Below are positions 7,201 to 42,300 of a DNA stretch of 64,000 nt, piece by piece. The number at the start of each line of letters is the position of its first letter. Position 1 is the first letter of the stretch. The DNA comes from Balanoglossus misakiensis (taxonomy: Eukaryota; Animalia; Hemichordata): contig CM082581.2 in assembly GCA_040954595.2 (NCBI GenBank), positions 1,914,699 through 1,978,698 of the forward strand, written 5' to 3'. A program made the translations under genes and the position numbers. The notes beneath the pieces are model-generated. The model had not been told where the DNA came from. It did no database searches and saw only the letters and a program-made list of their open reading frames with translations.

Positions 7201-8194
7201 AAAAACAGTTTTGAAAAAATATGTCAACTTGTAGAAATTATCAGAAAATCCAATATGGCCGTCATGAAGAAGACAATTAAACTTACAAGCAGCATTGCAG
7301 GGGCTAAACTGGTTAGCATGGTTTCAAAAGAAAGCAAAGGCTGTATCTGTTGTGGATGCCAAGAAATGGTAAAGTACTTCATTAGGTGTTCCAGTCCTCT
7401 AAATTTGAAACATGCATCTGCTGTACATGCCAGGTTATGGGAACGTAGATCAAAGGTCATTGCCAAAATTATCAAAAAATAAGGTTATGTTCCGGCAGCA
7501 GCAGTACTCATGTAAACAAAATCATGACTGTTTTGCTTTTTAACAAGAATCGTATCCACATACAATTAAGTTCAGAATACACTGGATCAAAGGACATGTG
7601 TAGTTGTCAAAATTTTGTATAATCAAGTTCTGAGAAAACTGGATCAAAAACATGTATTCTGGTCATATGGCGACTCATATCCATACAAAAATTTTATCCA
7701 ATAAGGTTGAACCAATCACAATTCACTTGAAAACTTAAGTAGAAAAAGATTTTTGACATTTTTAATGAGATTTTTCAAAAATCCATAATAAATCCAAAGT
7801 CACATGACCACTAACATTATTATTGAAAAAATTGGAACCGCACAGTAAATTAGAACTTTATTGGCCTTGTAATTTTTGAAAAGAGTCAACTTTTAAAGGT
7901 TATCAGAAAATCCAATATGGCTGCCATGACGAAGACAAAGCTAAAAGCAGCATTGGAGGGACGAATGTGGTTAGCATGGTTCCAACAGAAAGCAAAGGCT
8001 GTATCTGTAGCAGATGCCGAGAAATGGTAAAGTAAGCCAGAGGTCATGCAAAATTGTGCTAACAAAATTTGATATCAAACTGATCAGTGTCCAACAAAAT
8101 CCAGACTTCTAAGCTATATTGGTTAACTTGAAATTGCTTATGTACATAATTATTGTGTTAACGTTTAATACTTCATTAGGTATTCCAGTCCTAA

Positions 8195-14100: not shown

Positions 14101-16757
14101 AAGCTCTATTGGTTAACTTGAAATAGATTATGTACAAAATTATTGTGTAAAAGTTTAATACTTTATTGGGTGTTGCAGTCCACCAAATTTGAAGGCTGTA
14201 TCTGCTGTACATGCCAAGGCATGGGATAGTAGATCAAAGGTCATTGCCAAAATTATCAAAAGATTTGGGTTATGTCCTGGCAGCAGTAGTACTCATGTGA
14301 ACAAAATCATGACTGTTGTGCTTTTTAACAAGAGGCATATCCACATAAAATAAGTTCTGGAATTACTGGATCAAAGAACATGTGGAAGTAGTCTAATAAT
14401 TATGATATATTCTGGTCCTATGGTGACTCGTATCCATAAAAAGAATTTGTGTGGTTTCAATGAGCACGCTAGAAATAGGAAATTTTAGTCTTTTATCGGA
14501 GATCAGAAAATCCAATTTGGCTCCAATAAGGTTTACCCAATCACATTTTACTTGAAAACTTGATTAGAAATAAATGTTTTGAAATTTTTTTATTCTATTT
14601 TTCAAAAATCCAAAGCCACATGACCACTAACGATATTATTGTCAAACATTGAACCACACAGTCAATTTGAACTTGATTGGCCCTGTAGTTTTTGAAAAAA
14701 ATGTCACCTTTTAAAGGTTAACCGAAAATCCAATATGGCCGCCATGAGCAAGACAATTACAACTAAAAGCAGCATTGGAGGGACCAAAGTGGTTAGCATG
14801 GTTCCAACAGAAAGCAAAGGCTGTATCTGTTATTGATGCTGAGAAATTGTAAGTAAGCCAGAGGTCACGCAAATTTGGGCCAACAAATTTTGATATCAAA
14901 CTGAGGTGTGTCCAACAGAAAACAGACTTCTAAGCTCTATTGGTTAACTTGAAATAGCTTATGTACATAGTTATTGTGTTAAAGTTTAATTCTTCATAAG
15001 GTGTTCCAGTCCACCAAATTTGAAGGCTGTATCTGCTGTACATGCCAAGGCATGGGATAGTAGATCAAAGGTCATTGCCAAAATTATCTAAAAGATTTGG
15101 GTTATGTCCTGGCAGCAGTAGTACTCATGTGAACAAAATCATGACTGTTGTGCTTTTTAACAAGAGGCATATCCACATAAAATTAAGTAGTGAACAAAAA
15201 TGGATTAGAGAATGTGTGAAACTTGCCAAAAAATGTAACGTATTCTAGTCATATGGTGACTCGTATCCATAAAAAATAGTTGTGTGCTATTAATTAGTAG
15301 GCAAGAAATAGGAAAATGTATTTGTTAATCGGATTTTAGAAAATTCAATTTGGCTCCAATAAGGTTAAACCAATCACAATTCACTTGAGAACATGATTAG
15401 GAAAAATAAATGAGATTTTTTAATGAGATTTTCAAAAATCCAATAAGGCATCCAAAGTCACATGACCACTAATGATATTATTGTCAAACTTTGTGAACAG
15501 TAAATTAGAACTTGATTCGCCCTGCAGTTTTGAAGAAAGTCAACTTTTATAGATTATCAGAATATCCTATATGGCAACCATGAAGGAGACAATTAAAGCA
15601 ACATGCAGCATTGCAGGGGCTTAAGTGGTTAGCATGGTTCCAACACAAAGCAAAGGCTGTATCTGTTATGGATGCTGAGAAATGGTTAAGTAAGTCAGAG
15701 GTCATGCAAAATTGTGCTAACAAAATTTGATATCACACTGATCCGTATCCAACAAAAAGCCAGACTTCTAACTCTATTGGTTAATTTGAAAAAGCTTATG
15801 TACATAAATATTGTGTTAAAGTTTAAACTTCATTAGGTGTTTAAGTCCTCCAAATTTGAAGAATGTATCTGCTGTGCATGCCAAGTTATGGGGAAGTACA
15901 TCAAAGGTAATTGCCAAAATTATCAAAATATATTTGTTTTGTCCTGGCAGCAGTAGTACTAATGTGAACAAAATCATGACTGTTGTGCTTTTAACAAGAG
16001 GCATATCCACATAAAATTTAGTTCTGGAATTACTGTATCAAAGGAGATGCGAGAGTCACCAGCAAATTGAAATATATTCTTGTCATATGGTGACTCGTAT
16101 CCATAAAAATTATTTGTGTGCTTTCAATGAGTAGGCTAGAAATAGGAAATTTTAGTTTTTAATCGGAGATCAGAAAATCCAATATGGGTCCAATTAGTTT
16201 TAACCAATCACAATTTACTTGAAAACTTGATTAGAAATAGATTTTTGATTTGTTTTATGATATTTTTCAAAAATCCAATTATGCATCCAAAGCCACATGA
16301 CCACTACTGATACTATTATTGTCAAACATTGAACCGCACAGTAAATTAGAACTTGATTGGCCCTGTATTTTTTGAAAAAAAATGTCAAGTTTTAAAGGTT
16401 ATCCGAAAATCCAATATGGCCACCATGAAGAAGACAATTAATACTAAAAGCAGCATTGGAGGGACCAAAGCGGTTAGCATGGTTCGAACAGAAAGCAAAG
16501 GCTGTATCTGTTATGGATGCTGAGAAATGGTAAGTAAGCGAGAGGTCACGCAAATTTGGGCCAACAAATTTCGATATCAAACTGAGCTGTGTCCAACAGA
16601 AAACAGACTTCTCAGCTCTATTGGTTAACTTGAAATTGCTTATGTACATAATTATTGTGTTAAAGTTTAATACTTCATTAGGTGTTTCAGTCCTCTAAAT
16701 ATTTTGTTTATTTCCTGGCAGCAGAAAGCAAAGGCTGCATCTGTTATAGATGCAAAA
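8195..16757. repeat. 3411-bp higher-order tandem repeat (4 monomers), about 2.5 near-identical copies
   Basis: Near-identical ORFs recur at an exact 3411-bp offset: 8994/12405/15816, 9570/12981/16392, 10288/13699 and 11300/14711. Confidence 0.95.
10450..10580 (+). mobile_element. 131-bp 5'-truncated non-LTR retroelement 3' end, with a second copy at 13861-13991
   Basis: Flanked by a TTTTGTT direct repeat (10443-10449 and 10581-10587). Ends in GGCGCTATATAAA plus a (GATTT)n tail. Absent from the homologous monomer near 20190. Confidence 0.7.
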
Positions 16758-17874
16758 CACATAAAATAAGTTCTGGAATTACTGGATCAAAGGACATGCG
16801 AGAGTCGCAAACAAGTTGTTCAATCAAGTTTTGTAAAAATTTGATCAAAGAACATCTGAAAGTAGTCTAATAATTTTGATATATTCTGGTCCTATGGTGA
16901 CTCATATCCATAAAAAGAATTTGTATGGTTTCAAGGAGCACGCTAGAAATAGGAAATTTTAGTCTTTTATCGGAGATCAGAAAATCCAATTTGGCTCCAA
17001 TAAGGTTTACCCAATCACAATTTACTTGAAAACTTGATTAGAAATAGATTTTTTGAATTTTTTTTATGATATTTTTCAAAAATCCGAAGCCACATGACCA
17101 CTAATGATATTATTGTCAAACATTGAACCGCACAGTCAATAAGAACACCAAATTTGAAGGCTGTATCTGCTGTACATGCCAAGGCATGGGATAGTAGATC
17201 AAAGGTCATTGCCAAAATTATCAAAAGATTTGGGTTATGTCCTGGCAGCAGTAGTACTCATGTGAACAAAATCATGACTGTTGGGCTTTTTAACAAGATG
17301 CATATCTATGTATAATTTACTTCTTATAAAATAATGTAAAGGACACTGGTGCCCTTTGGGGATTACTCAGAAATTAGGTATTCACCAGAATTAAATTCAG
17401 GGGCGACATTGGCAAGCATATATGGCATTAATATTTAAATACTATGGAAACATAAAAAAATTAACTATGCCAAATAAAGTGTTATGTGTCACAGCAATCT
17501 TACAAGCTACACTAAAAAAACAACAACTGATTTTTGTCCAAAAACTGTCTGTAAAAATACATGCGAGTATGACAAATTAATTAGTCCAATCAGACAGAGG
17601 CATTCACTGACCTACCACCAGTTTATAATAAAATAGCTGGTGGTCCCTGTAACAGCTGGACCATTAAAATTATATAAGGAAGATCAGTTAAAAATTTACT
17701 CCAAGATTGCCGTTTATTTTTCTGATAAAAATGTTTATACATCTTAGTAAGTTATAACAAAGAAAATTATCAAAATCGGTTCACCGGATTTCAGCGTACA
17801 AACGCATCAAATAATACTGAGATTCTCAAGTATCTTCACCATTTTTCAAAGAATTTTACCAAATTATATAAAAA

Positions 17875-23545: not shown

Positions 23546-26500
23546 AAGTTGCATACACAATACTATAATATACTGTTAGAGATTTATAATGTTTTAAGTG
23601 AAAAAAATACAGAGATGTAAATACCCCTGCCATTTATTCAGTGACATGTAATGCTGCCATTATGCACTGATTGACTCTAGCCACTTTCCCAGTAGGAGGA
23701 AAAAGACCATATGCCGACTTCAGCATAAAAATCTCAGTTTACTCTGGCTAATTATATTGGAGTTCTTATCAGTGTTTCGGGACGCTTAGATGATAATCGT
23801 TGAAATGGACAACACCAACATATGACGTTAACAAGCGGGAAGAAACAAAAGTTACTCAGTTTTTGGCATTTTATTTTTATTTGCAAGACCGAGAAATTAA
23901 AATATGACAAGTTTAGAAATCAATCAGATTATACAGCATGTCCCACTTTGAATGGTGGCCATATTGGATTCTGAACTCCCTAGTAATATAAACATATAGT
24001 GTACTTAGTGAGTCTCAGTATAGGGTAATCAACACAATCAGACAAAACTTGGGTTACCCATTGGAATATTCCTATCAAATTTCAAAGCAATCCCATATGC
24101 AGTTTCAGAAAAATCAGTATTTTCTCCAAAATTGTATAATATCTTACTTCAATCGCTTCAGGGAACATGCCTACCAAAGCTCAAGGCGATCTGACATGCA
24201 GTTTGAAAGAAAATAATTTTTGATGAAAAATTCCACAACTTTCACACACAAAACGCAAATATGTAAATTTCAAGTATTTTTTTTAAACATCTCATTTAAT
24301 TATCCCCAAGGAACAAGCCTACCAAATTTGAAAGCAATCTCACAAGCGGTTTTAGAGGAAACAATTTTTGACCAAAAATGGCAAAAATTGCTACAAAATT
24401 ATAAATATGCACATTTTTCATTAACCAGGTTTTCATCAACTGGGACCACACATACAAAAGTATGCTTCCAAGCAACACGACTCTAGGAGAAAAAATCCTT
24501 GTCGCCCTGGTCAAAAAATTGGCTTATACTAAAACATCAAATCGGTTATCTCTCAAAGCTAAAAGGGTTATCACCAAACAGATTACAATGCCTAAGTTAA
24601 AATGTTTAAGACATTTTCTTTAGTTGTGGTTTTGGTTTTATCGGTTTTCCCAATAAAAATTAGGATAATTTTTTAAGTATGCCAACGGAGAGGTGGAAAT
24701 CTCACCAGAAAAGCGAAAATACACCAACCACGTTTAAACCGTAAAATTAAAAAAAAAACACCTGCAAACACCGAGGTGACTCATATAAAAACCTCAAAGA
24801 ACGTATGGAATTATGTATGGAAAAATACCGTGGTTTCCTGACCTTCCGCTAAACAAAGACTATACGTATGGAACTATCGTTCCGTCCACCAGCAAAGAGA
24901 CTTTCCAGAGAAAAACGTTCTACCCGTACCTTATGTCGCCATAGTGACGTGCCATTTTGCCACAACCGTTCGACAGTATGGTCGACTATTTTGACACTAA
25001 ACATCCTGCAGCGCTGCCATCCTTTTCAATCTCACAAACTGGCCCTACGTGCGCTTAGGCAAGAGGCCTAGCAATAAAATCCTCACAAAATATAACCCTA
25101 TAAATATGACTAGACTTTCTCGATTATGACTTCCTGGTCTCCTGATTCGGGAGCCAGCGCAGCCATACCCAGAATAGCCGAGAGGCTAGCTGCACGCCCG
25201 TAGCTCGGAATTGTTTCTGGAATTAAACCTACTTCTGTTCAACTACAAGGTGTTGTACGGATAGCTGCAAGTCACCCAATACCAGACAAAACAATCGAGT
25301 GACGGTAACATAGCTAAATAGGCTATTGTACTAAAAGCAATGATTCGATTATGAGCCTACCGAAAAGACGTCTTGATCCCGCGGCAAGTAGAAGGAAAGT
25401 GGTCGAAACCCGGCGTCGCACACCGGAAACGGATCAATGATCACCTGTTGTTATGGTGAGTAGAACGTGTTACCCAATCACAGACCAAAGTTAGCATTAC
25501 GACACACTAATGAATATGCATACATGCTACAGCTGCATATTTTATTTCTTTAGAACGCTCTGGAACATGCTCGCATTCGAAAGAATATCTCATTTGCTTT
25601 TTGAGTGTGAGTGCCTCATTGTCTACACAATAAAATCGGGGGGGGGGGCACAGTGGGTAATTTCTACCACAGCCACGCATTTCAAACCAGGCAAGCGAAC
25701 TGCAAACTTCCGATGTCTGAGCAACGGGTTTGATGTGCCTTGTGTTGTGAACACTTATTCGACTTCGAGGAAACAGAGCTATAATACTTCCTAATGTGTT
25801 TCTCTTTCTGTGTCATTTTGGTCAGTCAGACCACGATACCCGAGATCGTAAACTGCTTGGGTTAGGTCGCTTAGGAGGCTGCAACTGCGGCCACAGGTCA
25901 TGTCGGTGTGTGTTGTAAACAAACATGGTAAATGCCTCCCGCACAGCAACACGCTCGCTCTACCAGCAGTCACTGTGCTCTACCGTACTGTCGATCGTTT
26001 CCATGTCAGTTTAACGTTGGCTCGTTATAATGTCCCTATGCTTATCGTAATCTCGGGATCGTAATTATTATTTTATTATTATTATGATTATTATTTATCT
26101 TTATTTCAGACACAACCGTCCATAGAAATAGGTTACAAAAACTGACAAAAACACTAGAAAAGTAATAAATAAAATAAATGTAAAAAATATAATAGTTTTA
26201 AGAATCAATGTAAAATGTCAATCCAGTGGGTATGTAGTCCATAAAAGCGCATATCTCATGAGACAAGACGATTGATCAAAACATTGGGACTAGTACAGAA
26301 AAATTAAAAGCGACTTTTCTTCTCATGACGGAGAAGCAGTTTACGGCGTTTAGAACAAATATTTTAGAGGCACTTTCGTGTCCGGGTGACCAAGAAGTCT
26401 TCGAAGTGCATTGTTGTGACATACGATGATATTCCGGATATTATAATCGCACCATAAATGAAAGTCATAAATGTTATTACAAAAAGCATTAAATAAACGC

Positions 26501-27290
26501 AATTTCACATCGACAGAACACGAATTGAACTTTCTCAGGAGAAAATTAGGCCTAGCCCTTCCACATGTTATGTATTCGTGTTATGATAGTCCCACTGATC
26601 TGACAACACGCTCGCTTTTATTGTGGCCTTTTGTCCCGTTCGCCAGCACTGTGTATAGGCCTGCGTTTTCCGTTAACAGACTATCCCGTTCGCCAACTTT
26701 ACTGAACTGCAAATTGAAGAATCGGTTTGCAGCTAGGACGAAACGGCCGGGGTCGCGTACATTAAAGGCCGAACCAATAAGAATAAGTGCCGTAACGACT
26801 TGTTACCGACTGGGACGGCTACGAGCCAAGAGCATATTGCAGCTCAGTGTGGCAGGGCCGGTGGTGTGTCTTACGGGCGATGTCTCCACACACTGTACTG
26901 CTCTGTTTGATAAGAGTGTCCAAGCTTCGGACCACGGTCATGTTCGGACTTATGTCTTAACTTTGCTTTGTAAACACATTACCAACGTACAACCCCTCCA
27001 TGTTTGCAGAGAAATTAGATGAAGTCACATGGCGGAGTTCTCATCCTATCGGGATGCGTTTATCTCTGAATCGGCTGCTTTTCCATCGTCGAGTTTGATT
27101 TCATGTCCGATTCATAGTCGAGTTTTATGATGATCCCTGATTGATATATATTTTTTTCGGGCGCGCCGGGGGGGGGGGGGTTCCATGGGATTGATAATTC
27201 GAGGCAGGAGAAGAAATATGTCGACAGCGCAAATTGCCATTTTCTCGCTTTGTTTCGTCGATTTTGACAACTTCGCTCTGCATTGGTCGA

Positions 27291-27333
27291 CACAGCCGTA
27301 TTCAGCCTGAATTCTAGTTGGAGTAAAGAAATA
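27291..27333 (+). repeat. Left (gene 3' side) bipartite TIR: CACAGCC + 11 bp + GAATTCTAGTTGGAGTAAAGAAATA
   Basis: Read directly. The 25-bp block at 27309-27333 is the exact reverse complement of 34710-34734. Confidence 0.9.
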
Positions 27334-27862
27334 CAAACTCACAAACCTTACCAAATTACATCGATAGAGGGCGATATTCATATGGCAATCCTGATCTGTG
27401 CTGTGGTCACAAATTTAATACAATACACATTTTAAAAGTACAAGTTTAAAAAAAAATGTATGTAGTTTGAAAATTTATATTATTTCACTTTTAAATTCAT
27501 AGATTTTTTCAATTAAATTATATTTTTAATTAATGTTTTTGGCCACGACCTTAAAAAATCATTGCTCTTGTTTTGTTGGACATACCATGAACCATTTGGT
27601 GGGATCTGTTCACTGGATATACTAAAAAATATGACAATAGGGGATTGTATATATATATATCTATATCTATATATATATATATAGACACATATCTATATAT
27701 ATGTATATATGTAATATTTAGACACATGGGCACACACACACACACTTATATAAATATATACCGGTATATATGTGTGTTCCGATCCATACACTCACACCTC
27801 TATGAACTACATCCAAACATCACAAGAAATGATTACTGACAAAACTTGTACTTTTTTAACCA

Positions 27863-27868
27863 TTTATT
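27863..27868 (-). promoter_or_regulatory. Candidate polyadenylation signal AATAAA of the transposase gene
   Basis: TTTATT on the + strand, about 45 nt downstream of the stop codon. Confidence 0.5.
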
Positions 27869-27912
27869 CTTTTCTTTAGCAAAGTGCATGCATATCACTT
27901 CATCTTAAACAT

Positions 27913-30900
27913 TTAGCTGCTATCTTTGCGAGCCCTTTTCCTTATAGGTGGTTTAGGGTTTCCTGGGTGATTCCTGATATGATGATCTTTCACCATGCAC
28001 TTCAACCTGTCTACGTCATTTGGCATTGAGGCATAACTCCTCTCTGCTGTGTTGAAGTGATGGTGAATGACCTCAATACCTTGCTCACCTAGAAAACCCA
28101 GCCCCATATTTGTCATTTCAATTTGACTGACAACATGACATTCAAGAAGGTGCATCTTTGGAAACACAGATTCTTTAGGGAAATTTGATCTGTAATATTC
28201 CATAAGCCCTCGTATGTTGATACCTAGGAGAAAAAGAGAAAATATAAAATCCTTAGTGAGTGGTAATTTAAGAAATTGCAAGAGGTTTATCACTTTATCC
28301 ACTAAACACTAAGGAATCCAAATGTAAAGAGTTACAACTACAACATGAACATACATATAAATGTAAACATCAAAATAAAATAAAATACAATAAATATAAA
28401 AATTATACACTCAGAGAGAGAACAAAAAAGGTGAACACAAGAAAAAATACAAATACAAAATAAATTATCGTTGATTATCCAAACAAGAAAATAATACTTA
28501 TTTTATGCAAACTTCAACATTGAATACATTTACAGCATGCAGCAACCAGGCTTCTAAATCTGCCCGTGGCTTCTCTGGTATAATTCAAGTATCTACAAAC
28601 TGCCAAATAGAAAAAAAAACACCATAGAACACGGTTAGTTCAAATACATTATGAATAATCGAACAAATGTGATTATCTTGATAAGAATAGTCACCAAGCT
28701 CAGTTATTTCATCTTGGGTCAACCTCCTTGAAAGAGAATATGTGTTGTGGCATGATGCAAACAGTGTCAGTAATGGTTTGAATTTGTCCCTTATGGCCTC
28801 TGCATCAGTAATCAGTTCTGGTGTCATCTCCTCAGTACACTGTACCACACTATCAACAATGATGTTGATATTCTTGTCCTGAATGTGAGATGGAAAAGAT
28901 CTTATGTTTAATAGGTGTACGTGTTTGCATGAATGCATGAATAAGAAAATGTCAGAAACAAATTGAAAATGTATTTGTGAATATCTACAACAAAAGCAGA
29001 GTAAAACTAAATATTAATTTAACCTTTTCATTTCTAGGATTTGACCTGTATGAAATGAAAATACCAACAGGCAAGCATACAAGCAGCAGATAACTTACTG
29101 CCTTGGGGAAACTTAAAATTTTAAGAAAGCTGCATGCCATTGTTATCTACATAAAAAAATGAACTGGGGTCAATAACCACAAATCATGCCTTATTTTGCA
29201 GTTACTCTTATCCTCTGAAGTAAAACAATTTCTTCACTAGATTTAAAACTTGAATATTTGGGAAGCAATACAATATACTAGTATTATAGAAACCTTGCAG
29301 CATGTGTTGACATGGTTTCCAATGAAAGACTTTCCATGGTAAGCCTGTCTGTACACATGAATTTTATTTAGACTCCTATCAAGTTTCCTGACTGTATATC
29401 CAGCATCCCTTGGTAAGTTTCCTTTCAGGCTTGCTGCATCCTCTCTCTGTGTGGAAACAAAACTGTCAGTGAAACTATTGCAAAGCTGAAGTATGAAATC
29501 AAGAGTAGCATGGTTATCCAAAAGACAGGTGAAAATGAGGTGAAAGACTAGGATTATGTCCAAAATAAATGTTTGTTTCTCATACCTCAGCACTTGAAAT
29601 AACTATGGCAACAATTTTCCTGTTATGAGTACACATAAAATTTGGTTTTCTTTTTTCTGGTGTCATATGAAACATTATATTATTCTGTTTCTATTACTGC
29701 AAATAGAAAAAAAATCATTGACATGATCAAAACCTAGCATGAGAAACAAACACTGCAAAGTACTCTAACCCTAACCTTGGCCTTGGCACTTGCAATTAGC
29801 TTTTCCTGCACATCTGATGCTTTTGAAATAGCAGCTAATGAAAGGGAATCATCATCGCTGTCGTCATCACTATCATCATCAAGAAGTTGTCTCTGAATGT
29901 TATTCTCCATGGCAGCAGCCCTGGCTTCTTGAGAGTCGGCCTCCCTTTCCAAGACAAGGGCCTCACGAAGCAATGACACATATGCATCAAAACGTGCTGG
30001 TTTGAAGACAGGTTCATCAATGTCGTCATTTTTTTCCATAGCACAGAACATCTTAAGATCAAGTTCTGCACATGCATTTTCCAGCAACTCAAAAAACCTC
30101 TTATATAAGCCAAGGCTTATATGCAGTGCTGGAATTGCAACCTGGAAGCAAAACAAAATCAATGTAACTGTGAATAAAAAAAATACTGAGTTAAGTAAAC
30201 TTTAACAGGCCTATTTGGAATATACTGTCTGGCTACTTAGTATTCCCTCAACAATAAATGTAATTATTTATAGAGAAGATCATCAGTATACAGTTATGTT
30301 TTACATATTTTAGATTTTTTTGAGACAAACCCAAGACCTGAAGTAGCATTCACAAAGCCAGGACTCAAACCCACTAAGCTAACTTCCCAAGCTAAAAAAA
30401 GACTTCTTCTTTAGTTGCAATTTGATCCTGCATGTCTCCATCACATGTGCATATCATATGGTAAAGTGACAACTGGTAATGCTAGGAGCAAATAAAACTG
30501 TTTAACAACCAAGTCAAAATGACAATTATTGATTAAACTGCACACCCTGTTTAGAGGAATATCAAACAAAGGCTTGTTGATACAGTTGTTGAACATCAAC
30601 GCAGTCTTCTTATCACTCCCTGCTGCTACATAGGCCTGGTTGTCAGCTTTCAGTTGCTCAAGGGACCGTTGTTTTATTTCTGGTCTGTCTCCTGGTTCAC
30701 GCTTTGCTTCCTCCTTGGTAATAGTACACCAAAGACAGAAATATCTGCCTAAAGACAAATTACCCATGAATTATTGCACATTTTGTACATTTGCTGAAAA
30801 TAAATTATAATCATTCTTTCACATGGTAAATTACATATAGTGACTGGCTGACTGATAAACAAAGCTGCTGATAAACACTAGAGCACAATACTATTATCTA

Positions 30901-33900
30901 ATAACTCCATCATTCATGAATGGAAAACAAGTGATTAGTAGCTCACAATTGACTTATACCTTATGTGTACTTACCACTTGCACCTGATAACCCATAAATG
31001 GTTGTCAGATATTCATAGTCACCAGCAAGAAAAGGAATAACCTTCTTATCTCTATGGAAGAAAGGTTTGAAAGTTAAAGGCATGGTACATAGCATAAAAC
31101 ATGTTGAAATAACAAATATTCAGTTTGCCAGCACAGTCACTATGAGTATGGCCAGCACTGCTATTGTTGACAATTGAATTGATTTCAATTGTAAGCGATA
31201 ACAGTGTTTGTTATACATACACTGGTTGTGCTGACAGAACCGATATTGTGTGTTTCAACATGGTATAAGGAACAGACAACACAGTGTTAGTTGAAAGAAT
31301 CAAGCTAAAAGTATCTGAAACAAATAAAAGTTACAGCTACATGTACTGAGTGTCAGAAAACCAGCCATTGTAAGAAAAGGTGTGCATCAGTTTGAATAGA
31401 GCTGAACAGTTATGTACAATCCTCTACCATGGGTAATGCTGCAGAAGAGAAAACTATGACTAGATATTTTAATGCATAATTGAAATATTTGCATCATTTA
31501 CATGTATATCATGTACTCACCTCCATGTGCAACTCTCTAATGAGTTGATTTGGTCTAAATTAACCTTGTAGGCAATCTCAAGGTTATGCCTTGTATCCGG
31601 TGCAGCAAAAATATTCCACACCACTGTGTTTTCAATTGAATTAAGGTTGGCCACATTACAAATCTGAAAGACAGATTTCATGCTGCCACCTCCCTTATCG
31701 CCCCCAACTTTACACCAGACTTCATCACAGGGAATAGTGCTTTCCTGCCAAGTAAGTTTATTTTCTCTGAAATATAAAGTAGATTGATATAATAATATCA
31801 ATATAATAAATGCATTACAAACATGGTAGTAAAAAATGTTGAAGAATGAGAATGAAAAGACCACGTGTACAAAATATTGTCTAAAATGTGAAGTGAAATG
31901 TAGGTACCATTAGTCTAATTTAATTCAATTGAAAATGTGTAAAGTAAGGTCAAAACAAAACATACTATTTATTTTTGACATTATATGATGTCTTTCATTT
32001 TTACGTCAATGAAGTTGAATGTTAACTCCAAATTATACTCCCTACCAGCATTCACAAGAACATTTTAGGGATAACTGAAAGTAAAATCCAAATTTGTTGA
32101 TTATTCTCAATGTTACCTTTCCAAACACTCAAGCCTAGTAATGATTGCATCCTTCACATTCTCTATTACTACCAATGGTGCAAGTCTGATTTCTGTGCAG
32201 TGTTTGCCATCTGTTCCCCTCACTTTAAATGTGAAGGGAAGTCTTTCCGCAGAAAGGGGCAGGGTTAGCGTTTCAGCAATTTCTCTGTCCCTTGTCTCTC
32301 CTTGGACATGTATGTTCCAATTTCGCAACCATCTGAGGAAAAAAATAGATTATGTTGAAATGCATGTGTACTTACCCATCCCATGACACATTGCCACTAT
32401 TGACAGGTTTGACTGTACTAGTAAAATATGCTATAAAAACGCTGGCATACACACCCACTTAATCCTTACCTCCTCAGTGCCCTCAACTTATTCCATGGTA
32501 GTGACAAACTGGTCTTTAGCATTAGACCAGCTCCAGGAGGAACATTAGGCAAAAGACCAAGGGAATGTAGTTCAGTCTTCCCAAATCTGCCCAGCTCCCG
32601 CCTAACCTGTTGTGCTACCGCTTTGCTGTCACCTGACGCACCTGACGCACTTTCTCTTGTCTTCTCTACAATGGTTGCTCGATGTGCCTGTGTACGAGTT
32701 GATACTCTGGTGGAATCCTTCGCTGCCTTTGGGACATACATCAGGTGAATAGGCTTATGGGAGAAAAATGACACACGCAAATATTTTATTAACATGGGGA
32801 CATATGTAATGCAGGTAAATGGCCTTACTAGGAAAAATTACACACAAATACATATGTCATGCTTAAACATATCAGATATGTCAACAATTGAACATTGTGA
32901 CAATATTACAAAACACTATAACTACTTATTCATTCCTACTACAGTCATAATAATTATGACATTAATTTCAAATCAACACTGTTTTTTCCTTACCTTTGAT
33001 CTAGTTTTGAATGTTATCGCCTCTCCCTTTCTAGAGCCAGGGGTTTGTTCAAGTTTCAGTTTGATTATTTTGGTTGCCACTGTATCGAAACCAGCCATCT
33101 TGTCGATTTTTTCAGAACAGTTAGCAATGGTGTCAAGTGCTTCTTGTGGGGATATAGTACTGGTTGTTTTCACGGTCTCTGGCTGGTGTACCGACCCATT
33201 CACATCGATGTCAGTGTCATTGCAATTTACATGTAATTGCTGTTGCTGTTCAGGGAGCTTGGCTGACGCATAATGATGATCATGGGCAATTGATGTGTAG
33301 GGGCAGCTTTCAAAATGGCCTTTCAGATCCCTCAATGGCAGTTCTCTAGTACATCCCCAATTACTATAATCGCAGTGTATTGTTAGTGAACTTAGGATAT
33401 TTCCCAACATGACTGGAATCGAAGCAACTAAATTGCTGTCTATTGTAACCCGACAGACAGGACATGTTGGGGAAACTTTGAACCACTCTGCCAAGCAGGG
33501 GGAACAAAATGTGTGGGGGTTAGCACACAGAATTTGGACAGGCTCGTCCACAATTTCTTTGCAAATAGGGCAATCGAGTTCTTGGCCAATATATGTGCTG
33601 TGAATGAATCGTTGTGGAGACAGTCCCAGTGAACACCTAAACCTCTTGCCTGCTTTGGTCTTTACAACATTGACGAAATCTATATCAACGGGTGTGTCAG
33701 TTTCACTTTGAGTTCCTGAACCCAACTTCCTATCATCAGAGTCATTAGGAGTAGACACGATATTTAACTTTTTTTTTTCACGTCCTCGTTTCGTCTGTTT
33801 TGGTTTCCTTCCGGGTCGAGACCGAAGGCAAACATCACACTCACCGTTTCGCGGATGTTTTTTCCACAATGTCACCTTCGTTCTCGGGCTATAGCTAGCT

Positions 33901-34133
33901 GTACTGACCTGTGTTACATGTAAACAGTAGTCGACTGTCCGCTTGCAATTCTTGCAGAAACTATTTGGATGAACTGTCGATTCGTCGTTGTTTACGTCAA
34001 CATTGAACGTATCGCGCAATTGGGTTTGGAAGCTCTTACACGCGTACGAAGTACTGACGATTTTTGTACCACAAATTCTACACAGTGTTGAGATTAGACC
34101 CAAATGTGCATCCAAATCTTTCTTGGTGGCCAT
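27913..34133 (-). CDS. RAG1-like DDE transposase (Chapa Zn domain, RING, Zn finger, RAG1/Transib-like catalytic core), 10 exons, 1059 aa
   Basis: Exons: 34133-32994, 32753-32470, 32332-32117, 31766-31521, 31051-30975, 30748-30546, 30141-29776, 29446-29294, 28878-28695 and 28223-27913. All nine introns are GT-AG with matching phases, giving 3180 nt and no internal stop. Motifs: HxxxxxxxCRICG...HPNSFCKNC...WKKH...CDVC; RING CPIC...CANPHTFCSPC...CPVC; CDYSNWGC...HFESC; KVGGDKGG (D1, 31697-31699); LAGDYE (D2, 31018-31020); YFCLWC; PALHISLG; FIGN; KMHLLECH; GFLGEQGIE (E, 28072-28074). Confidence 0.92.
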
Positions 34134-34709
34134 ATTTTGCTTCAAAGATGATCTGTATTTTGATTATGGCGCCACAGACACCGGTAACAGGTAGCGTATA
34201 GACGCCGTGACCATGGTGACATTGAGTCAATTTACGTCAATCACAATCACGAACTCTACCGAAAGTGTAATTACGTAGCCACACGCTAAATTCCGAAGCC
34301 ACACCAACACTACAAAACGATCGTACATACAGCAAATTACCCCAGAAATTTGTTATTTACGTTGTGAAAATTGATTTAATTTTAAATCAAGCGCAAAAAA
34401 ATACACATCATAATCATGCTCACCTACAGATCGCACGGCTACCGTGAAAAAAATCGCCACTAACGCAACCACAAAATCACACTTTGAGGCGATTGCAGTA
34501 CATCCGGAAGCCAGCAAAATATCAGTGAGGTTGTTCGGACATCTTCGGAAACCAATTATACTTAGCAAATGTCACGATTATGTCCATATTAGGTAGTTAC
34601 CCCGCCCAGAACTTGCTTCGATCGATCGGCGGCAATTCTCAAAAAACATGTGATCGAAATCCCGCCGCGAGTTCTCCCTATACACGAGATCTCGTGCGTT
34701 TGACATTGT

Positions 34710-34761
34710 TATTTCTTTACTCCAACTAGAATTCGCCTTACGTACGATATTAACAGCCGTG
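34710..34761 (-). repeat. Right (gene 5' side) bipartite TIR: CACGGCT + 20 bp + GAATTCTAGTTGGAGTAAAGAAATA
   Basis: The reverse complement reads CACGGCTGTTAATATCGTACGTAAGGC-GAATTCTAGTTGGAGTAAAGAAATA. Confidence 0.9.
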
Positions 34762-36189
34762 TCGAGTGGTCTTAAATTTTACCCATCTAACAAAACAACT
34801 TTGTAGTCTATAAAGTGCTCCCAGCTGGAATAAACGTCGATTCAATTCAATTCATCATGAATTTGATCAAATTTTCTAAAAAACTCACTTGCGGGCGCTG
34901 CTCTCAATGAAAGCAGGTAACGTAACACAAACTGGTCGTTTTTTCATACTTGTAGTAGGAAGCGTGGCCAACGTTTGGACTTAATTTGTTGTTATTGACC
35001 TAATACCACACGAGCTGATATGACCTAATTTCAAAAAACTGTCCCAAAACTGCCAAACTCAAATATTCAAACATCACCATAATTGTACAATATCTTACAT
35101 CAATCAGTATAAGGAACATGCTTACCGAAGTTCAAAGCAATCTAACAAGTGGTTTCAAGGACAAAAACTTCTGACGAAAAATTGCAACAGTTAGGCCCTA
35201 CCTCAAGAACATAAATATGCACATTTCAGCAAAAATTTAACACAACTCACAATTGCTTAACCCTGAAAACATGCCTACCAATTTTCAAAGCAATCTGACA
35301 AGCGATTTCCGAGAAAACGAATTTTGACCAAAAATTGCAAAATTTGGCCCATAATTACAAATACGCAAACTTAGCAACAATTTGAAAAAAAAAACAAAGA
35401 TCACCTATAGGAAGCTTTATAATTATACTGAATTTTTTTTAGAGAAATCGACCAATCACTTTCATAGAAGATGTGGAAAAAATGACAAAAGTCATAAAAA
35501 GTAGAAAATTCACGATATAAGGTCAAAACTTATAGAGCTCTGTGATGTTGGCAGAAGATATATGCATACCAATTTTCAAAGAAATCTGACCAGTAGTTTT
35601 CAGCTAATGTGTCCGAGATCAGACAAAAACAGAGAACAGAACAGCCAAAGTGAGAGAACAGAATAGCCAAAACTATCACCAGCGCTTAACTCCACATCTG
35701 AAAGCAAACCATTTGTTAGAGCGATATTCAGGTCCTAAGAAAACCCAAACTTCAATCAGACAGAACATACTGGTAATCACAATTGCCTTCTGATTGGAAT
35801 CTGTGCAGGAAAAGCAACAACAAATACTGATCCTCACCTGAAATCAAAGAGACAGACAAAAGCACTCATTTTATCAGAATATTTATTTTAAGTATGCAAA
35901 AATCCTAACATGATATATCTGTCTACTTATTTATCATGATAGGAAAATTGTTGGAATAAAAATATCAAAGATATTCCTTCCTAATGCTGCATATAATATT
36001 TACATACTCTGGCAGTCTTGTAAATACAATGAAATGTTAGTCAAAAGCTCTTCTTAAGAACTGAGTAATTCTCAGTACAAAAAGCAATATGTGGAAAATA
36101 CCAACTTAGCATCTTATGCAAAATCAACAAAATTGAGGAATGGTGTCCCCCCCCTATATGGGGTGAGAACACCGCCAAAAATAGCTGAT

Positions 36190-36680
36190 GTCTTTATTTG
36201 GTAGTTTTCTCATCATTATTATGTTATTATGTCATTATTTGGCCATTACCTTGGCCATTATTTGGTTCGCTCGACATTACCTCGGTCATTATTATACCGT
36301 TATTTCGTTATTTGGCCGTTATTATGTCATTATTCAGTACCGATGTCTTTATTTGGAAGTTTTCTCATCATTACTATGCTATTATGTCATTATTATACCG
36401 TTATTTGGTTAGTTCGTATTTATGTCATGGTCTCGACATTACCTCGGCCATTATTTGGTTCGCTCGACATTACCTCGGTCATTATTATACCGTTATTTCG
36501 TTATTTGGCCGTTATTATGTCATTATTCAGTACCGATGTCTTTATTTGGAAGTTTTCTCATCATTACTATGCTATTATGTCATTATTATACCGTTATTTG
36601 GTTAGTTCGTATTTATGTCATGGTCTCGACATTACCTCGACCATTACCTCGGCCATTATTTGGTTCGCTCGACATTATTT
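36190..36680. repeat. Subterminal CATTAT-rich array with a 193-bp direct duplication (mirrored at about 39450-39940)
   Basis: GGCCATTATTTGGTTCGCTCGACATTA occurs at 36253, 36446 and 36651. Confidence 0.85.
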
Positions 36681-36787
36681 GACCTGCTTTATTATTTGAA
36701 CTCTTGCTCGGTACCCAGAATTCATTGCACAAAATGGCGACGGTATGAAAGTTTCGCCGGCCGTGGCCGACGACGGTCTTGTAAACA

Positions 36788-37637
36788 CAGGGTTCGTACG
36801 CTCCTGGAAACTCCTGGAATTTGAAACCCCTCCTGGAAACTCCTGAAATCTCCTGGAAATTCAAAATTTCTCCTTGAAACTCCTGGAAAACCGCGAGTCA
36901 CGATCGCATTTCACCGGATCGTGAAACGCGTTGCCCATTTCACTCAGCGCACCAGTTATCTTTAGACAGGCGTCCTATAAATAGTATCATTGACGTAGTA
37001 ATGCACAATTTGCAACAACTAACGCAGCTCAGCATTCCGGTCGCAACAAAATATCTAAAACTTGACAAAAGATGTAGCAACTTTTGTAAGAGGTCATGCC
37101 ATGTTTCTGCGCGTCTGCAGAATACTTGTGCAGACGGCCGCGGCAGACACCCGTGAGATCGATGTTCAAGGGCAATTAGTGACGTCAAAAAGAAGCAAAA
37201 AAGGCAGACGTTTTTGTGTGTTTTTTCAGCAGCAAAACAGTAATTTCCATCGGTAATTTGTCGATTTTATCACGACAGAAATCATTGCTTTAGGGACCGT
37301 TCTGTTTTTACGGCCGAGGGTGGGGGAGGGAGTGTCACTTAAATTTTAGCCAAATATATTAAATGATTTGGGAACCTAGGAGATCTCTTGGTGAAAATTG
37401 TTTTACTAGGCCTTCATGGGGAGGTCATTGAAATTTGTACTATCACAGTCAAAAGTCTTTAAATGATTTGTTAAACTAGAATAACAAGTGCATGTGAATG
37501 TAACAGTAATAGTAAATTTTTTTGTTGCGTAAAACATCCTGGAAAGTGGCATTTTTACCACAAAAACTCCTGGAAAATTACTGGAAATCTCCTGGAAACT
37601 CCTGGAATTTTGAATTGCTCTAGGTGTATGAACCCTG
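36788..37637. mobile_element. 850-bp non-autonomous element with a 5-bp TSD (hAT5-like), left-arm copy
   Basis: TIR CAGGGTTCGTAC / GTATGAACCCTG, an AAACA direct repeat on both sides, and CTCCTGGAA subterminal repeats. Confidence 0.8.
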
Positions 37638-38493
37638 AAACAGCACGCGTGGATCAGGCCTCGAACTTAACGCCGGCCCACCGGCCCCGGGCAGGTAAAT
37701 ATTTATAGTGGGCCGGTTATTTTCACATCTTGTCGGCCCAATTGGGCAGGTGAATATACACAAATAAATCAGTAAAACATACTGAAGAATCAATATTCTA
37801 TTGTAAAAGTTATTTAGAAAGAAAGATTTCAAGAAAAAAAAACAAAGTTTTGTGTCTTTATATGCCGTTTTTTCTTATTTTATCGAAGATATAATCGGCC
37901 GTCAACGCGCTGGCAGGGTTACGCGATTAAAGTTCATTGATTGATATGTAAATTAGGAGAAGCCAACGTACGCGCGCGTTGGTGAACCCGACCTGACCCC
38001 TTCCACCCCATGCCCAGGCCATGCGCTCACTGCGTAAGCGTGTCTAAATATAGCTCGGATATATTTGCATAAATTACTGCTTTGTTCTTCTGAAGTTTGC
38101 CTGATAGAATAAAAATGAGTCTTAAAGTTTGGGTTTACTAAAACTTAGAAGGAAGTTTGTACTTAGTGTGCCATCAAAGTGGGAAAGGAAAGGAAATTGA
38201 GTGTCTAAATGGTTGTATTAGACTCCTGGCAGTGTCCTTGTCTTTCCTTAAAATAAGAAAAAACGGCATATAAAGACACAAAACTTTGTTTTTTTTTCTT
38301 GAAATCTTTCTTTCTAAATAACTTTTACAATAGAATATTGATTCTTCAGTATGTTTTACTGATTTATTTGTGTATATTCACCGGCCCAATTGGGCCGACA
38401 AGATGTGAAAATAACCGGCCCACTATAAATATTTACCTGCCCGGGGCCGGTGGGCCGGCGTTAAGTTCGAGGCCTGATCCACGCGTGCTGTTT

Positions 38494-39343
38494 CAGGGTT
38501 CATACACCTAGAGCAATTCAAAATTCCAGGAGTTTCCAGGAGATTTCCAGTAATTTTCCAGGAGTTTTTGTGGTAAAAATGCCACTTTCCAGGATGTTTT
38601 ACGCAACAAAAAAATGTACTATTACTGTTACATTCACATGCACTTGTTATTCTAGTTTAACAAATCATTTAAAGACTTTTGACTGTGATAGTACAAATTT
38701 CAATGACCTCCCCATGAAGGCCTAGTAAAACAATTTTCACCAAGAGATCTCCTAGGTTCCCAAATCATTTAATATATTTGGCTAAAATTTAAGTGACACT
38801 CCCTCCCCCACCCTCGGCCGTAAAAACAGAACGGTCCCTAAAGCAATGATTTCTGTCGTGATAAAATCGACAAATTACCGATGGAAATTACTGTTTTGCT
38901 GCTGAAAAAACACACAAAAACGTCTGCCTTTTTTGCTTCTTTTTGACGTCACTAATTGCCCTTGAACATCGATCTCACGGGTGTCTGCCGCGGCCGTCTG
39001 CACAAGTATTCTGCAGACGCGCAGAAACATGGCATGACCTCTTACAAAAGTTGCTACATCTTTTGTCAAGTTTTAGATATTTTGTTGCGACCGGAATGCT
39101 GAGCTGCGTTAGTTGTTGCAAATTGTGCATTACTACGTCAATGATACTATTTATAGGACGCCTGTCTAAAGATAACTGGTGCGCTGAGTGAAATGGGCAA
39201 CGCGTTTCACGATCCGGTGAAATGCGATCGTGACTCGCGGTTTTCCAGGAGTTTCAAGGAGAAATTTTGAATTTCCAGGAGATTTCAGGAGTTTCCAGGA
39301 GGGGTTTCAAATTCCAGGAGTTTCCAGGAGCGTACGAACCCTG
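38494..39343. mobile_element. Mirror copy of the 850-bp hAT5-like element in the right arm
   Basis: Reverse complement of 36788-37637, including the TGTTT flanks. Confidence 0.8.
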
Positions 39344-42300
39344 TGTTTACAAGACCGTCGTCGGCCACGGCCGGCGAAACTTTCATACCGTCGCCATTTT
39401 GTGCAATGAATTCTGGGTACCGAGCAAGAGTTCAAATAATAAAGCAGGTCAAATAATGTCGAGCGAACCAAATAATGGCCGAGGTAATGGTCGAGGTAAT
39501 GTCGAGACCATGACATAAATACGAACTAACCAAATAACGGTATAATAATGACATAATAGCATAGTAATGATGAGAAAACTTCCAAATAAAGACATCGGTA
39601 CTGAATAATGACATAATAACGGCCAAATAACGAAATAACGGTATAATAATGACCGAGGTAATGTCGAGCGAACCAAATAATGGCCGAGGTAATGTCGAGA
39701 CCATGACATAAATACGAACTAACCAAATAACGGTATAATAATGACATAATAGCATAGTAATGATGAGAAAACTTCCAAATAAAGACATCGGTACTGAATA
39801 ATGACATAATAACGGCCAAATAACGAAATAACGGTATAATAATGACCGAGGTAATGTCGAGCGAACCAAATAATGGCCAAGGTAATGGCCAAATAATGAC
39901 ATAATAACATAATAATGATGAGAAAACTACCAAATAAAGACATCAGCTATTTTTGGCGGTGTTCTCACCCCATACCCCTCCCCTTCAGCACTATACATGA
40001 TTCAACAGCCTCAGAGGGTCATTCTTCACACACACATAAAATGAATGGCTGATTACATGAAATATTTTCGAAAGTCAGTAAGTGGTCATGAAAGGCTCTT
40101 GTTTTTGTTAAAATAAAAAAATGTTAGGAAATTCAAGAAAAGTAAAAAGCAATGTATGTGAATATTGATATTAAAAACATTTGATTTTAATTGTTTGGCT
40201 ACTATGGTCACTGGATAGAAGAGATTAGGACTCTTTAATGACTTTATTTGCATTTGAATAGTGAACTTTCCTTTTGACGTTGAACCCCCTAGCTGGACGA
40301 GAAAATGATCTAAATGTATCATGAACGTTTATTTTGTTGATACCATTCATTAATTTACCTTTTTAGGCATATATAAATGCATTATATCTCGATTGTAATT
40401 TGAGTGCATTTCGAGTCTATTAAAGTAGTTTTCGTCGTACGAGGTCTCCTTCACTCCAGTCACTTCCTTATAACAGACTATATTTCTTCACATGCATCTA
40501 ATAGTTTGATTCTAACATACTTGTCACGGGTGTCGCCGTTCACCACAAAACACACCAACATGGTTTAAAGGTTTCACAAGACATAGGCCTATAACATTTC
40601 TTAACTGAAATTGAACAGGGACATCATCAGTTCATATGTGTGGCCGGTCTGGCTACACAGGTGAACTGCTAAATTACGCACATGTATGGGAGTTCACCTA
40701 CAGCAGAATACACAAAAATTCATGCAAGTGAAAAATACAGAAGTACAATTGAAGACTTGACGCAAGTTCAGACACCAATTACTTGTGCTAAAATGAGCCA
40801 GTAGAATGCACCTATATAAAAATGCTTCAAGCTACAGGTAAAGTACAAGGAAAACTAACCTGAAATTGAACATAGACATCTTCAGTTCATACATGTGGCC
40901 GGTCTGGATACAGAGGTGAACTGACTAAGTATATGCATGGTGTCCTTTTATATCAGCAATCTACACTATGGTGGCGCATTACCTTGAGTTCATTAGTCAA
41001 ATGAAACATCCTGGTGGTTTGCATATAATTGAGATCATCAAATAGACTGTAAGTTCTATCATTACTAGAAAGGTGTTCTCATGAATAAATGATTAAATGA
41101 TGACTGCAAAGAATACAGGTGTTACATACATACATATATTACATATATATTCAAGTGAACGAATGGTTCGGTCCAAATCCATTGTTTCCTGCTGGAAAGT
41201 TGGATGTCTACACAGGGAATTGGGTGAAAGGTGAGAGTGCTAAGAAAAAAGGCTGATGGTAATTTTCCATTTTTATCTAAATTGAATACATGTGTGGGCT
41301 TAATCTTTCCCAATAATGCTGACACACAAAAAGTTCATTGTTTTACCAAACTTTCCTTGAGAGTCGAATGAAGGCACTTGATATTAGCACAGAGACTGAT
41401 TTTTTCCACACACCACTTTTCTCCTTTCATAGAGCTCCATTCAAATTTTGTACACAACAATGTAATAACATTGTCACTACCCAAGCCTAACTTTCAAATT
41501 ACAATGTGACATTTCAAAACACTGTTAGACTCCCCAATGAACCATTAACTCTGGATCAGCATCCCTTCAAATTAGTGATAGCCCTGGGGTGAGTTTCGTT
41601 AATTTTGTTATAATGGTGTTATTTAATTGTTTGGCTGTAACACAAATTACTACATGGAAGTATAAACATGTTATGTCCACACATATGCTGTAGGTTCAGC
41701 TTCAATTCAATTTTCAGCAATCAGATCATAACAAATTATTCCAAAAAAAATGAACATCAAGAGCTGGTGACTTTGTGGCTTTCACATGATAAATATAAAC
41801 GTGTGAACATTGCCCCATGCTAGAGTGTGATATTAACACGTCTCAAACAACCTACAATTCTCTGTATATAATGAAACACATTCATTATAGCTGGATTAGT
41901 TGGTTCACAGGTAATCTGTAACCAGATAGGCTGACCTGAGCAATCCATGTTTTTGCAAGTGTTTTATTGTCACTGTCATAGTGTGACTTCTTTGGTGTAA
42001 TGCTCCACTGAACACAAGAGTATTAAAATTGGACAGATAAATGACCAATAACACAAAGTCTGTGATTGGGTAATACAAATGATAAGTACACAACTGGAAG
42101 ATCTGTCACTCAAAGTTTTGTCTATTGCTCTTTTCCCTGAGGGAGAAATAGAGAGCAATTTTAGAGATACGTTCTTCAGTTTAATGATCAGGCATTAATG
42201 AAATATTAGTCTAGTATATAGCTGTATTTTGTCAGCTTTGCTTCCAAAAACTATGCATGCCACTGCCCCAATAAAGCACGATACCCCTTGCTGGGAATTG

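Follow-up and report, generated by a model that had tools for sequence, protein, structure and literature searches.

A 64,000-nt stretch of the Balanoglossus misakiensis genome (GenBank assembly GCA_040954595.2, contig CM082581.2, positions 1,914,699 to 1,978,698 of the forward strand; hereafter the window, numbered from its first letter) carries a transposable element of 7471 bp at positions 27291–34761, which begins and ends with CAC...GTG tips and is flanked on both sides by TCGA. Its gene lies on the minus strand and is predicted to encode a single DDE transposase spliced from ten exons. The element is very probably an intact and autonomous Chapaev transposon of the RING-bearing type that moves by cut and paste. 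It was likely mobile in the recent past, and its transposase, of predicted RAG1-like core fold, likely reads two unequal ends. An earlier reading of the same DNA, made from the sequence alone (the original prediction), had placed an intact RAG1-related, Chapaev-type element at 27287..34765; the element is intact, although that span includes both TCGA copies in addition to the element proper.

The ten exons, separated by nine GT..AG introns of 137–471 nt, join into a frame of 3180 nt, that is, 1059 amino acids (aa) and a stop codon, with no internal stops (Table 1). The spliced protein aligned end to end with a full-length Ptychodera flava RefSeq protein (36% identity, 1078 columns). Intron positions were compared with those of 12 related elements from metagenome assemblies, taking the best-scoring intron at each position in an ungapped test with 31 shifts allowed and counting only testable relatives. 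Position and phase were the same in 12 of 12 relatives for intron 2, 11 of 11 for intron 5, nine of ten for intron 6 and all seven for intron 8, followed by introns 9 (6/7), 4 (5/7), 1 (2/4) and 3 (2/4); intron 7, matched in none of seven relatives, interrupts a coiled coil that is too variable for the ungapped test. Since most introns share position and phase with those of relatives, they are, judged by these positions, an old feature of the clade and no peculiarity of the window copy. The ten-exon, stop-free model of the original prediction is thus supported by canonical sites at all nine introns, by the homologue alignment and by the shared intron positions, and its 77-nt exon does encode D640, the predicted second catalytic Asp. 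Its description of the gene as hidden by nine introns is accurate as to their existence, but the introns are common to the clade, and spliced relatives are already present in RefSeq as 'uncharacterized protein'. Two upstream acceptors for exon 2 (32827 and 32823) were rejected, as either of them alters the phase and puts exon 3 out of frame. Most relatives have the window's intron set, but long frames with few or no introns occur in some members (L001:498-3437, L027:1033-3582, L003, L005 and L008) of a set of 80 relatives (L001–L080), which was drawn from 186 related stretches of metagenome contigs; these may be intron-loss lineages or transcripts.

Table 1. Coordinates of the exons, ends and non-coding parts of the element in the window.
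Feature	Position	Strand	Description
TSD TCGA, downstream copy	27287..27290	.	Sequence; empty-site joint skipping element + 4 nt
3' end (short end)	27291..27333	+	Terminal 9-mer CACAGCCGT, 9-nt spacer, 25-nt inner block 27309-27333; inner 9-mer at bases 19-27 from tip
3' non-coding part	27334..27912	-	AT microsatellite; single AATAAA near 27868; insufficient room for a second gene
Exon 10	27913..28223	-	aa 957-1059; zinc ligands H981-x4-H986, E1003 as predicted catalytic residue, basic tail that is short and has no CCGHC motif
Exon 9	28695..28878	-	aa 896-957; helical part of insertion domain
Exon 8	29294..29446	-	aa 845-895; conserved GN motif
Exon 7	29776..30141	-	aa 723-844; LH motif (H729), long predicted coiled-coil hairpin with acidic loop; donor is the least tested junction
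Exon 6	30546..30748	-	aa 655-722; CxxC zinc ligands C659/C662
Exon 5	30975..31051	-	77 nt, aa 629-655; predicted second catalytic Asp D640
Exon 4	31521..31766	-	aa 547-629; predicted first catalytic Asp D570, RNase H strands; Pfam DUF1280
Exon 3	32117..32332	-	aa 475-547; aligns ahead of RNase H domain
Exon 2	32470..32753	-	aa 381-475; three helices predicted in the position of the RAG1 nonamer-binding domain, then start of core match; tentative (Z 3.5, collinear)
Exon 1	32994..34133	-	aa 1-380; Chapa zinc domain (~aa 10-102), RING finger (aa 187-228), C2H2-like finger
5' non-coding part	34134..34709	-	CpG-rich
5' end (long end)	34710..34761	-	Terminal 9-mer CACGGCTGT, 18-nt spacer, same 25-nt inner block 34734-34710; inner 9-mer at bases 28-36 from tip
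TSD TCGA, upstream copy	34762..34765	.	Sequence; empty-site joint

Exon 1 matched the Pfam families RAG1_imp_bd (E 1.7e-10) and zf-RING_2 (E 3.4e-8, aa 187-228) and, as one stretch, mouse RAG1 154-375 (E 1.1e-12); its Chapa domain matched the RAG1 NZD structure 21wb (E 4e-6). Exon 4 matched DUF1280 (E 3.9e-11); none of the eight remaining exons matched a Pfam family at E up to 0.1. For exon 10, a word-index protein search gave no match and HMMER against a representative protein library gave 854 relatives. DUF1280, a domain of 'unknown function', matches the front of the catalytic core in P0029, P0002, P0140, P0151–P0153, P0156, P0157 and L001 and appears from these matches to be a Chapaev transposase core domain. 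The residues D570, D640, C659/C662, H729, G887-N888, H981-x4-H986 and E1003 stand in the RAG1-like order (D, D, CxxC, H, GN, HxxxxH, E) given in the original prediction and are conserved in all 12 aligned homologues where the column is covered, the exceptions being one E and two gaps at D570. The catalytic triad is predicted to consist of D570, D640 and E1003; its two aspartates we take to be the counterparts of RAG1 D600 and D708, a pairing by motif order and not by residue-level alignment.

Chapaev was described by Kapitonov and Jurka in 2007; its features include the N-terminal Chapa zinc domain, which a RING finger follows in two subgroups (Chapaev-1/2_BF, -1/2_NV and -4/6/7_HM; PMC4411706). 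The hallmarks listed for it in PMC4079192 are 5'-CAC...GTG-3' ends, a target-site duplication (TSD) of 3-4 bp and a DDE transposase with C(2)C, LH and H(4)H motifs. The element has CAC/GTG ends, a 4-bp TSD, a Chapa domain with a RING finger after it, and the C(2)C, LH and H(4)H motifs in its core. Compared by eye, its Chapa motif pattern agrees with that displayed in supplement 5 of PMC4411706, and its Chapa ligands follow the type I pattern as given in bioRxiv 10.64898/2026.01.24.700457. Its core aligned with the Branchiostoma protein P0157 at 33.6% identity over 723 columns (E 2.9e-112), and the N-terminus of P0157 agrees by eye with the Chapa and RING rows of Chapaev-1_BF in the same supplement 5. 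We therefore regard the element as almost certainly a RING-bearing Chapaev; every feature on which the original prediction had based this assignment (Chapa and RING, CAC ends, 4-bp TSD) held, and the core similarity to the Chapaev-1_BF-like P0157 is in line with it.

The element forms a new family of this known superfamily. With the named RING-bearing Chapaev it shares the order Chapa then RING, the C(2)C/LH/H(4)H core, the CAC...GTG tips, the 4-bp TSD and the lack of a second gene, but it is a separate family from them, its nearest sequences being unnamed ones of Ptychodera flava and Glandiceps, identical at 57% at best. Chapaev3 has a 3-bp TWA TSD and no RING, whereas the element has a 4-bp TCGA and a RING. 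A quick tree of 37 cores, made among relatives with no Repbase, Transib or RAG1 outgroup, grouped the core of the window element with four hemichordate proteins (support 100), the nearest of them being 57% identical. Several of the metagenome relatives form multi-copy families with sharp ends; the relatives have CAC ends, and 15 of 21 two-ended copies carry an exact 4-bp TSD of varied sequence. In the other six, the ends are misset or damaged (L026, L030 and L065), the duplication agrees at three of four bases (L053), is 5 bp long (L058) or is absent (L016). L058:35-6200 is a single related Chapaev copy with clear short and long ends, and its duplication, AGTTG, has the length typical of RAG and Transib; a Chapaev sublineage with 5-bp TSDs is possible.

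The contigs that cover the element come from three runs (X1–X3), all of one sample. The empty site forecast in the original prediction was seen in X2 contigs, which join 27285 to 34761 and skip 7475 nt, that is, 7471 + 4. TCGA is a palindrome, and as judged from the window alone it could have been a part of the inverted repeat, a possibility ruled out by the empty site; because the joint skips the element together with one TCGA, the otherwise ambiguous duplication is fixed at 4 bp, and both the perfect TCGA duplication and the CAC/GTG ends of the original prediction are in place. X1 contigs start exactly at 27291 and stop exactly at 34761; sharp stops at both tips would be expected if several flanks branch there. 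One X2 contig has another flank at the 3' tip, with ATGA instead of TCGA as the adjacent four bases, and so the copies do not all share the same flanks; the original prediction had named identical flanks in all copies as fatal to its reading.

Compared with the majority in each run, the window copy has 16 substitutions and one 1-nt indel (0.2%); over both runs there are seven coding differences, of which four change residues and none falls at a conserved site. The contig depth of 228 in X1 is not a copy number. The flanking sequence is a repeat at far higher depth than the element, with several sequence variants. These copies would fit a young multi-copy family, and their near identity makes recent mobility of the element quite likely. 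Some observations weigh against taking this further: the single second flank is modest evidence, X2 having GATC-type chimeric joints, and the window copy need not be an active one, given its differences from the sample majority, with four of seven coding changes altering residues. The suggestion of probable recent activity in the original prediction has thus gained near-identical copies, an empty site and a second flank, but activity itself can only be inferred from these, and the window copy is 0.2% off the sample majority. The insertion target (26500-27290 and 34762-35500) is a very abundant host repeat, diverged pieces of which lie at 24.1-24.4 kb and 60.2-60.7 kb; no further transposase copy or relic and no empty copy of the target repeat were found within the window.

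No RAG2-like gene was apparent in the element: 622 nt separate the stop codon from the element end, and the four plus-strand open stretches of at least 90 aa (90-174 aa), for which no Pfam scan was made, are all antisense to the transposase gene. The ratio of observed to expected CpG is 1.53 in the 628 nt ahead of the ATG versus 0.48 for the whole element, which makes the CpG-rich 5' non-coding part a likely promoter. A search of Rfam gave no matches within 26000-40500.

For fold comparison, a model of P0156, which is 35% identical to the spliced protein (pLDDT 75.4), served as a stand-in. Foldseek matched this model to RAG1 (E 6.5e-16), ProtoRAG (E 1.7e-11) and HzTransib (E 3.5e-9), and VIA-align gave Z 25.9 for RAG1 (root-mean-square deviation, rmsd, 3.4 A; 457 residues; 15% identity), 24.5 for ProtoRAG and 15.6 for HzTransib, unrelated rows having Z of 11.0 or less. 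The stand-in model contains an RNase H-type fold, on which the original prediction had made its reading depend. The core itself, searched as single sequences and as profiles against the PDB at E up to 10, gave only coiled-coil noise and no RAG1, ProtoRAG or Transib. The proposed relation to RAG1 is therefore upheld by the modelled core fold, whereas searching the PDB with the core sequence brought up neither RAG1 nor Transib, and the kinship of the core with RAG1, as modelled, is structural only.

The most interesting feature of the element, not noted in the original prediction, is its unequal bipartite ends. The terminal 9-mers of the two ends are identical at seven of nine positions, and an identical 25-bp block is present on both ends, starting at base 19 of the 3' end and at base 28 of the 5' end, an offset of 9 bp. 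Relatives share the terminal motif. The pairwise offset was significant in four of nine families: the window (+9), L058 (+10) and family C (-11), each with p 0.0005, and family A (-10, p 0.025). With a 10-mer learnt from 21 non-window ends, the best site ended at base 27-30 or 35-39 in all 23 scored ends, weak sites included, and in eight of the nine two-ended families a short end was combined with a long one. Searching L001–L080 with a fixed pattern yielded 44 matches, 15 of length 27-28, 27 of length 35-39 and two of length 46; among 43 distinct ends with both motifs, the inner motif ended at base 27-28 in 15, at 35-39 in 27 and at 46 in one. The background of 94 hits among 15,493 other CAC sites was spread over 19-60 and showed no such peaks. 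At each of the 11 loci where both ends matched, one was short and the other long. A motif trained on one clade placed the best site in the same zones in six of eight held-out ends (null mean 2.15, P 0.004). The long end is the 5' end in the window and in L058 and the 3' end in the large clade. Viral contigs gave seven matches to the end pattern, five of them of length 24, which were not used. In L051, a long end is followed after 238 bp, in the same orientation, by a family C short end (positions 12655 and 12893), which suggests a nested or adjacent copy.

Comparable geometry is known from RAG and its relatives. In the recombination signal sequence (RSS), a spacer of 12 or 23 bp separates a heptamer from a nonamer (PMC1131882), so that by arithmetic the nonamer ends at base 28 or 39. 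The ends of AanRAGL are described as a 13-bp element, a 4- or 13-bp spacer and a 10-bp element (PMC9435367), which puts the end of the inner element at base 27 or 36, equal to the inner 9-mer of the window, and a 10-bp end asymmetry is given for PflRAGL-A (bioRxiv 2023.08.20.553239). Besides the bipartite ends with an offset of 9-11 bp, the element shares with RAG1 and RAGL (ProtoRAG, PflRAGL-A and AanRAGL) the domain order NZD-RING-core, with a tentative NBD-like region ahead of the core, where NBD is the nonamer-binding domain, and the modelled core fold (Z 24.5-25.9). It differs from them in the low core identity of 15% by structure (the cores of RAGL and ProtoRAG are ~30% identical to RAG1), a 4-bp instead of a 5-bp TSD, the lack of RAG2L and of the CCGHC tail, and an inner motif unlike the A-rich nonamer; it also has a long coiled-coil insert in the insertion domain and a D-to-E spacing of 363 aa versus 253 in RAG1. 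Transib, represented by HzTransib and subgroup I of PMC9435367, is likewise a single-gene DDE element with CAC ends and a fold match (Foldseek E 3.5e-9), but Transibs have no Chapa or RING and canonically a 5-bp TSD, with exceptions, and the core has no sequence match to them. Asymmetric ends are reported for all subgroup I and some subgroup II Transibs (PMC9435367); the end geometry of the element agrees with these bipartite, partly asymmetric RSS-like ends, again without an A-rich nonamer as the inner motif. The Drosophila P element belongs to a different superfamily, with a THAP DNA-binding domain, an 8-bp TSD and a weak fold match (Z 10.3). Its transposase has internal sites at distances of 9 and 21 bp from the terminal repeats, an arrangement that has been likened to 12/23 (PMC7776569). 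Because P elements have a similar offset in another superfamily, a one-turn asymmetry can, by this analogy, arise outside the RAG lineage, and convergence is possible.

A candidate reader of the inner block is encoded by exon 2. Folded alone, exon 2 of the window reached pLDDT 83.4, and in a Foldseek search RAG1 chains were rows 1 and 2 of nine (E 4.5 and 5.9); among 48,161 chains compared with the model, the isolated RAG1 NBD (3gnb) ranked fourth (Z 3.5, rmsd 4.0, 59 residues). Residues 11-70 of the model aligned on RAG1 393-454, directly ahead of the core match, which starts at RAG1 459. The exon 2 sequence compared with the PDB gave only coiled-coil noise. Rank and collinearity make an NBD-like region weakly suggested by the model, a reasonable lead. 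In the literature searched, no description of asymmetric Chapaev ends or of an NBD-like region was found, with Repbase Reports 2007-2008, Yuan and Wessler 2011, subscription reviews and bioRxiv supplements lying outside its scope.

One could propose the following mechanism for the element. A transposase dimer would bind the terminal CAC-containing 9-mer through its catalytic core, which is built around D570/D640/E1003 and a single zinc coordinated by CxxC and HxxxxH. The inner block would be bound by the helical domain that exon 2 encodes, in the manner of the nonamer-binding domain of RAG1. The offset of one helical turn would lead the complex to pair a short end with a long end. Excision would probably proceed through hairpins on the flanking DNA, by analogy with RAG and Transib, and insertion would occur with a 4-bp stagger; no RAG2-like partner gene in the element would be needed. 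The window copy lies inserted in a high-copy host repeat.

We consider a functional rule pairing short with long ends tentative, its chances being somewhat below even. The same applies to the wider hypothesis that Chapaev transposases follow a 12/23-like rule of their own, in which a domain of nonamer-binding type reads inner motifs one turn apart, only short and long ends pair, no RAG2 takes part, and both the asymmetry and the Chapa-RING-NBD-core layout are ancestral to Chapaev, Transib and RAG. A number of results weigh against the reading of the element as a whole, these ideas included. The pairwise offset was not significant in families B, D, G and H and was 0 in F; family H (L048) shows no short end; the held-out motif missed the 3' end of the window and one other end; and the inner block of the window fits the motif of its relatives poorly (scores 2.1 and 0.6; p 0.46 and 0.66). 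Most ends come from one clade and one assembly set, with about three independent lineages having the offset at both ends, and the patterns counted in the 11 loci and 43 ends were derived from the same ends and are partly post hoc. By score alone the exon 2 match is at noise level, since unrelated chains reach the same Z of 3.5 and E exceeds 1, and GRPR/K, reported as a motif of the RAG1 NBD (bioRxiv 2023.08.20.553239), is absent from the window copy. The RAG1-like core fold of the element is itself modelled on a relative with 35% identity, P0156. Accounting for the ends without any pairing rule, so that this is an ordinary Chapaev whose enzyme reads the terminal 9-15 bp, with the inner block an auxiliary site or a trace of end-to-end copying, comes close to an even chance. 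For invertebrate RAGL enzymes, PMC7204232 proposes dependence on the terminal 15-17 bp and no sensitivity to asymmetry, the identical blocks (25 bp in the window, 19 bp in L058) look like conversion between ends, the pairwise test failed in five of nine families, and the side of the long end varies among lineages. However, the positions 27-28 and 35-39 are kept in lineages about two or more protein substitutions per site apart, which makes neutral drift unlikely, and where orientation is reversed between lineages, the combination of a short with a long end is retained, which is more in line with a pairing rule than with fixed left and right roles.

Other explanations concern the status of the element as a mobile Chapaev. 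It is improbable that it is an intact but immobile relic or a copy domesticated by the host. Neither end has a defect, nor has the TSD; the insertion lies within a high-copy repeat of which empty paralogous sites are seen; the contigs branch precisely at the two tips; there is a second flank; and the introns, nine in number as in a host gene, are common to multi-copy mobile relatives. In favour of this explanation, the splice model and the use of the gene are predictions from DNA, and the 0.2% divergence could be allelic if the sample is another individual. Far less probable still is a RAGL or Transib identity, by which the element would be the RING-bearing 'TransibVDJ' ancestor proposed by Kapitonov and Koonin. 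Chapa, RING and core do stand in the order of RAG1, RAG1 is the best fold match, and the end geometry of 27/36 equals that of AanRAGL (13+4/13+10, PMC9435367), but the TSD is of 4 and not 5 bp, there is no room for RAG2L and no CCGHC tail, and the core, without a PDB match to RAG1, ProtoRAG or Transib at E up to 10, matches Chapaev-1_BF-like proteins at E 1e-112. An intact RING-bearing Chapaev, with recent mobility likely, thus accounts best for the locus.

We know of no lineage besides Chapaev and RAG1 that has the N-terminal zinc domain of RAG1. The origin of the 12/23 rule of RAG is disputed (PMC8355894 versus bioRxiv 2023.08.20.553239; PMC9435367), and Chapaev is named neither in the searched passages of two of these sources nor in the third; experimental work on Chapaev systems is lacking, according to a 2026 preprint. 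With an intact element that has one gene and whose ends are known, the origin of the rule can be tested directly. If Chapaev ends do have a one-turn offset and an NBD-like reader, the asymmetry would predate the split of Chapaev, Transib and RAG and would not need RAG2, and if the 12/23-like reading is true, the element would be the first Chapaev ready for biochemistry. If the offset is functionless, it would be a well-preserved new family of a known superfamily, whose main uses would be as a substrate in assays and in identifying DUF1280 proteins as Chapaev transposases.

Elsewhere in the window, two inverted arms of 1.73 kb, 99.9% identical and separated by a 366-bp spacer, occupy 36157-39974 and contain internal short repeats; they are either a young foldback-type repeat or an assembly artefact. 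Tandem arrays are located at 7375-17146 and 1-1820, with units of ~3.4 kb composed of ~0.83-kb subunits (95% identical), together with a satellite of ~192 bp.

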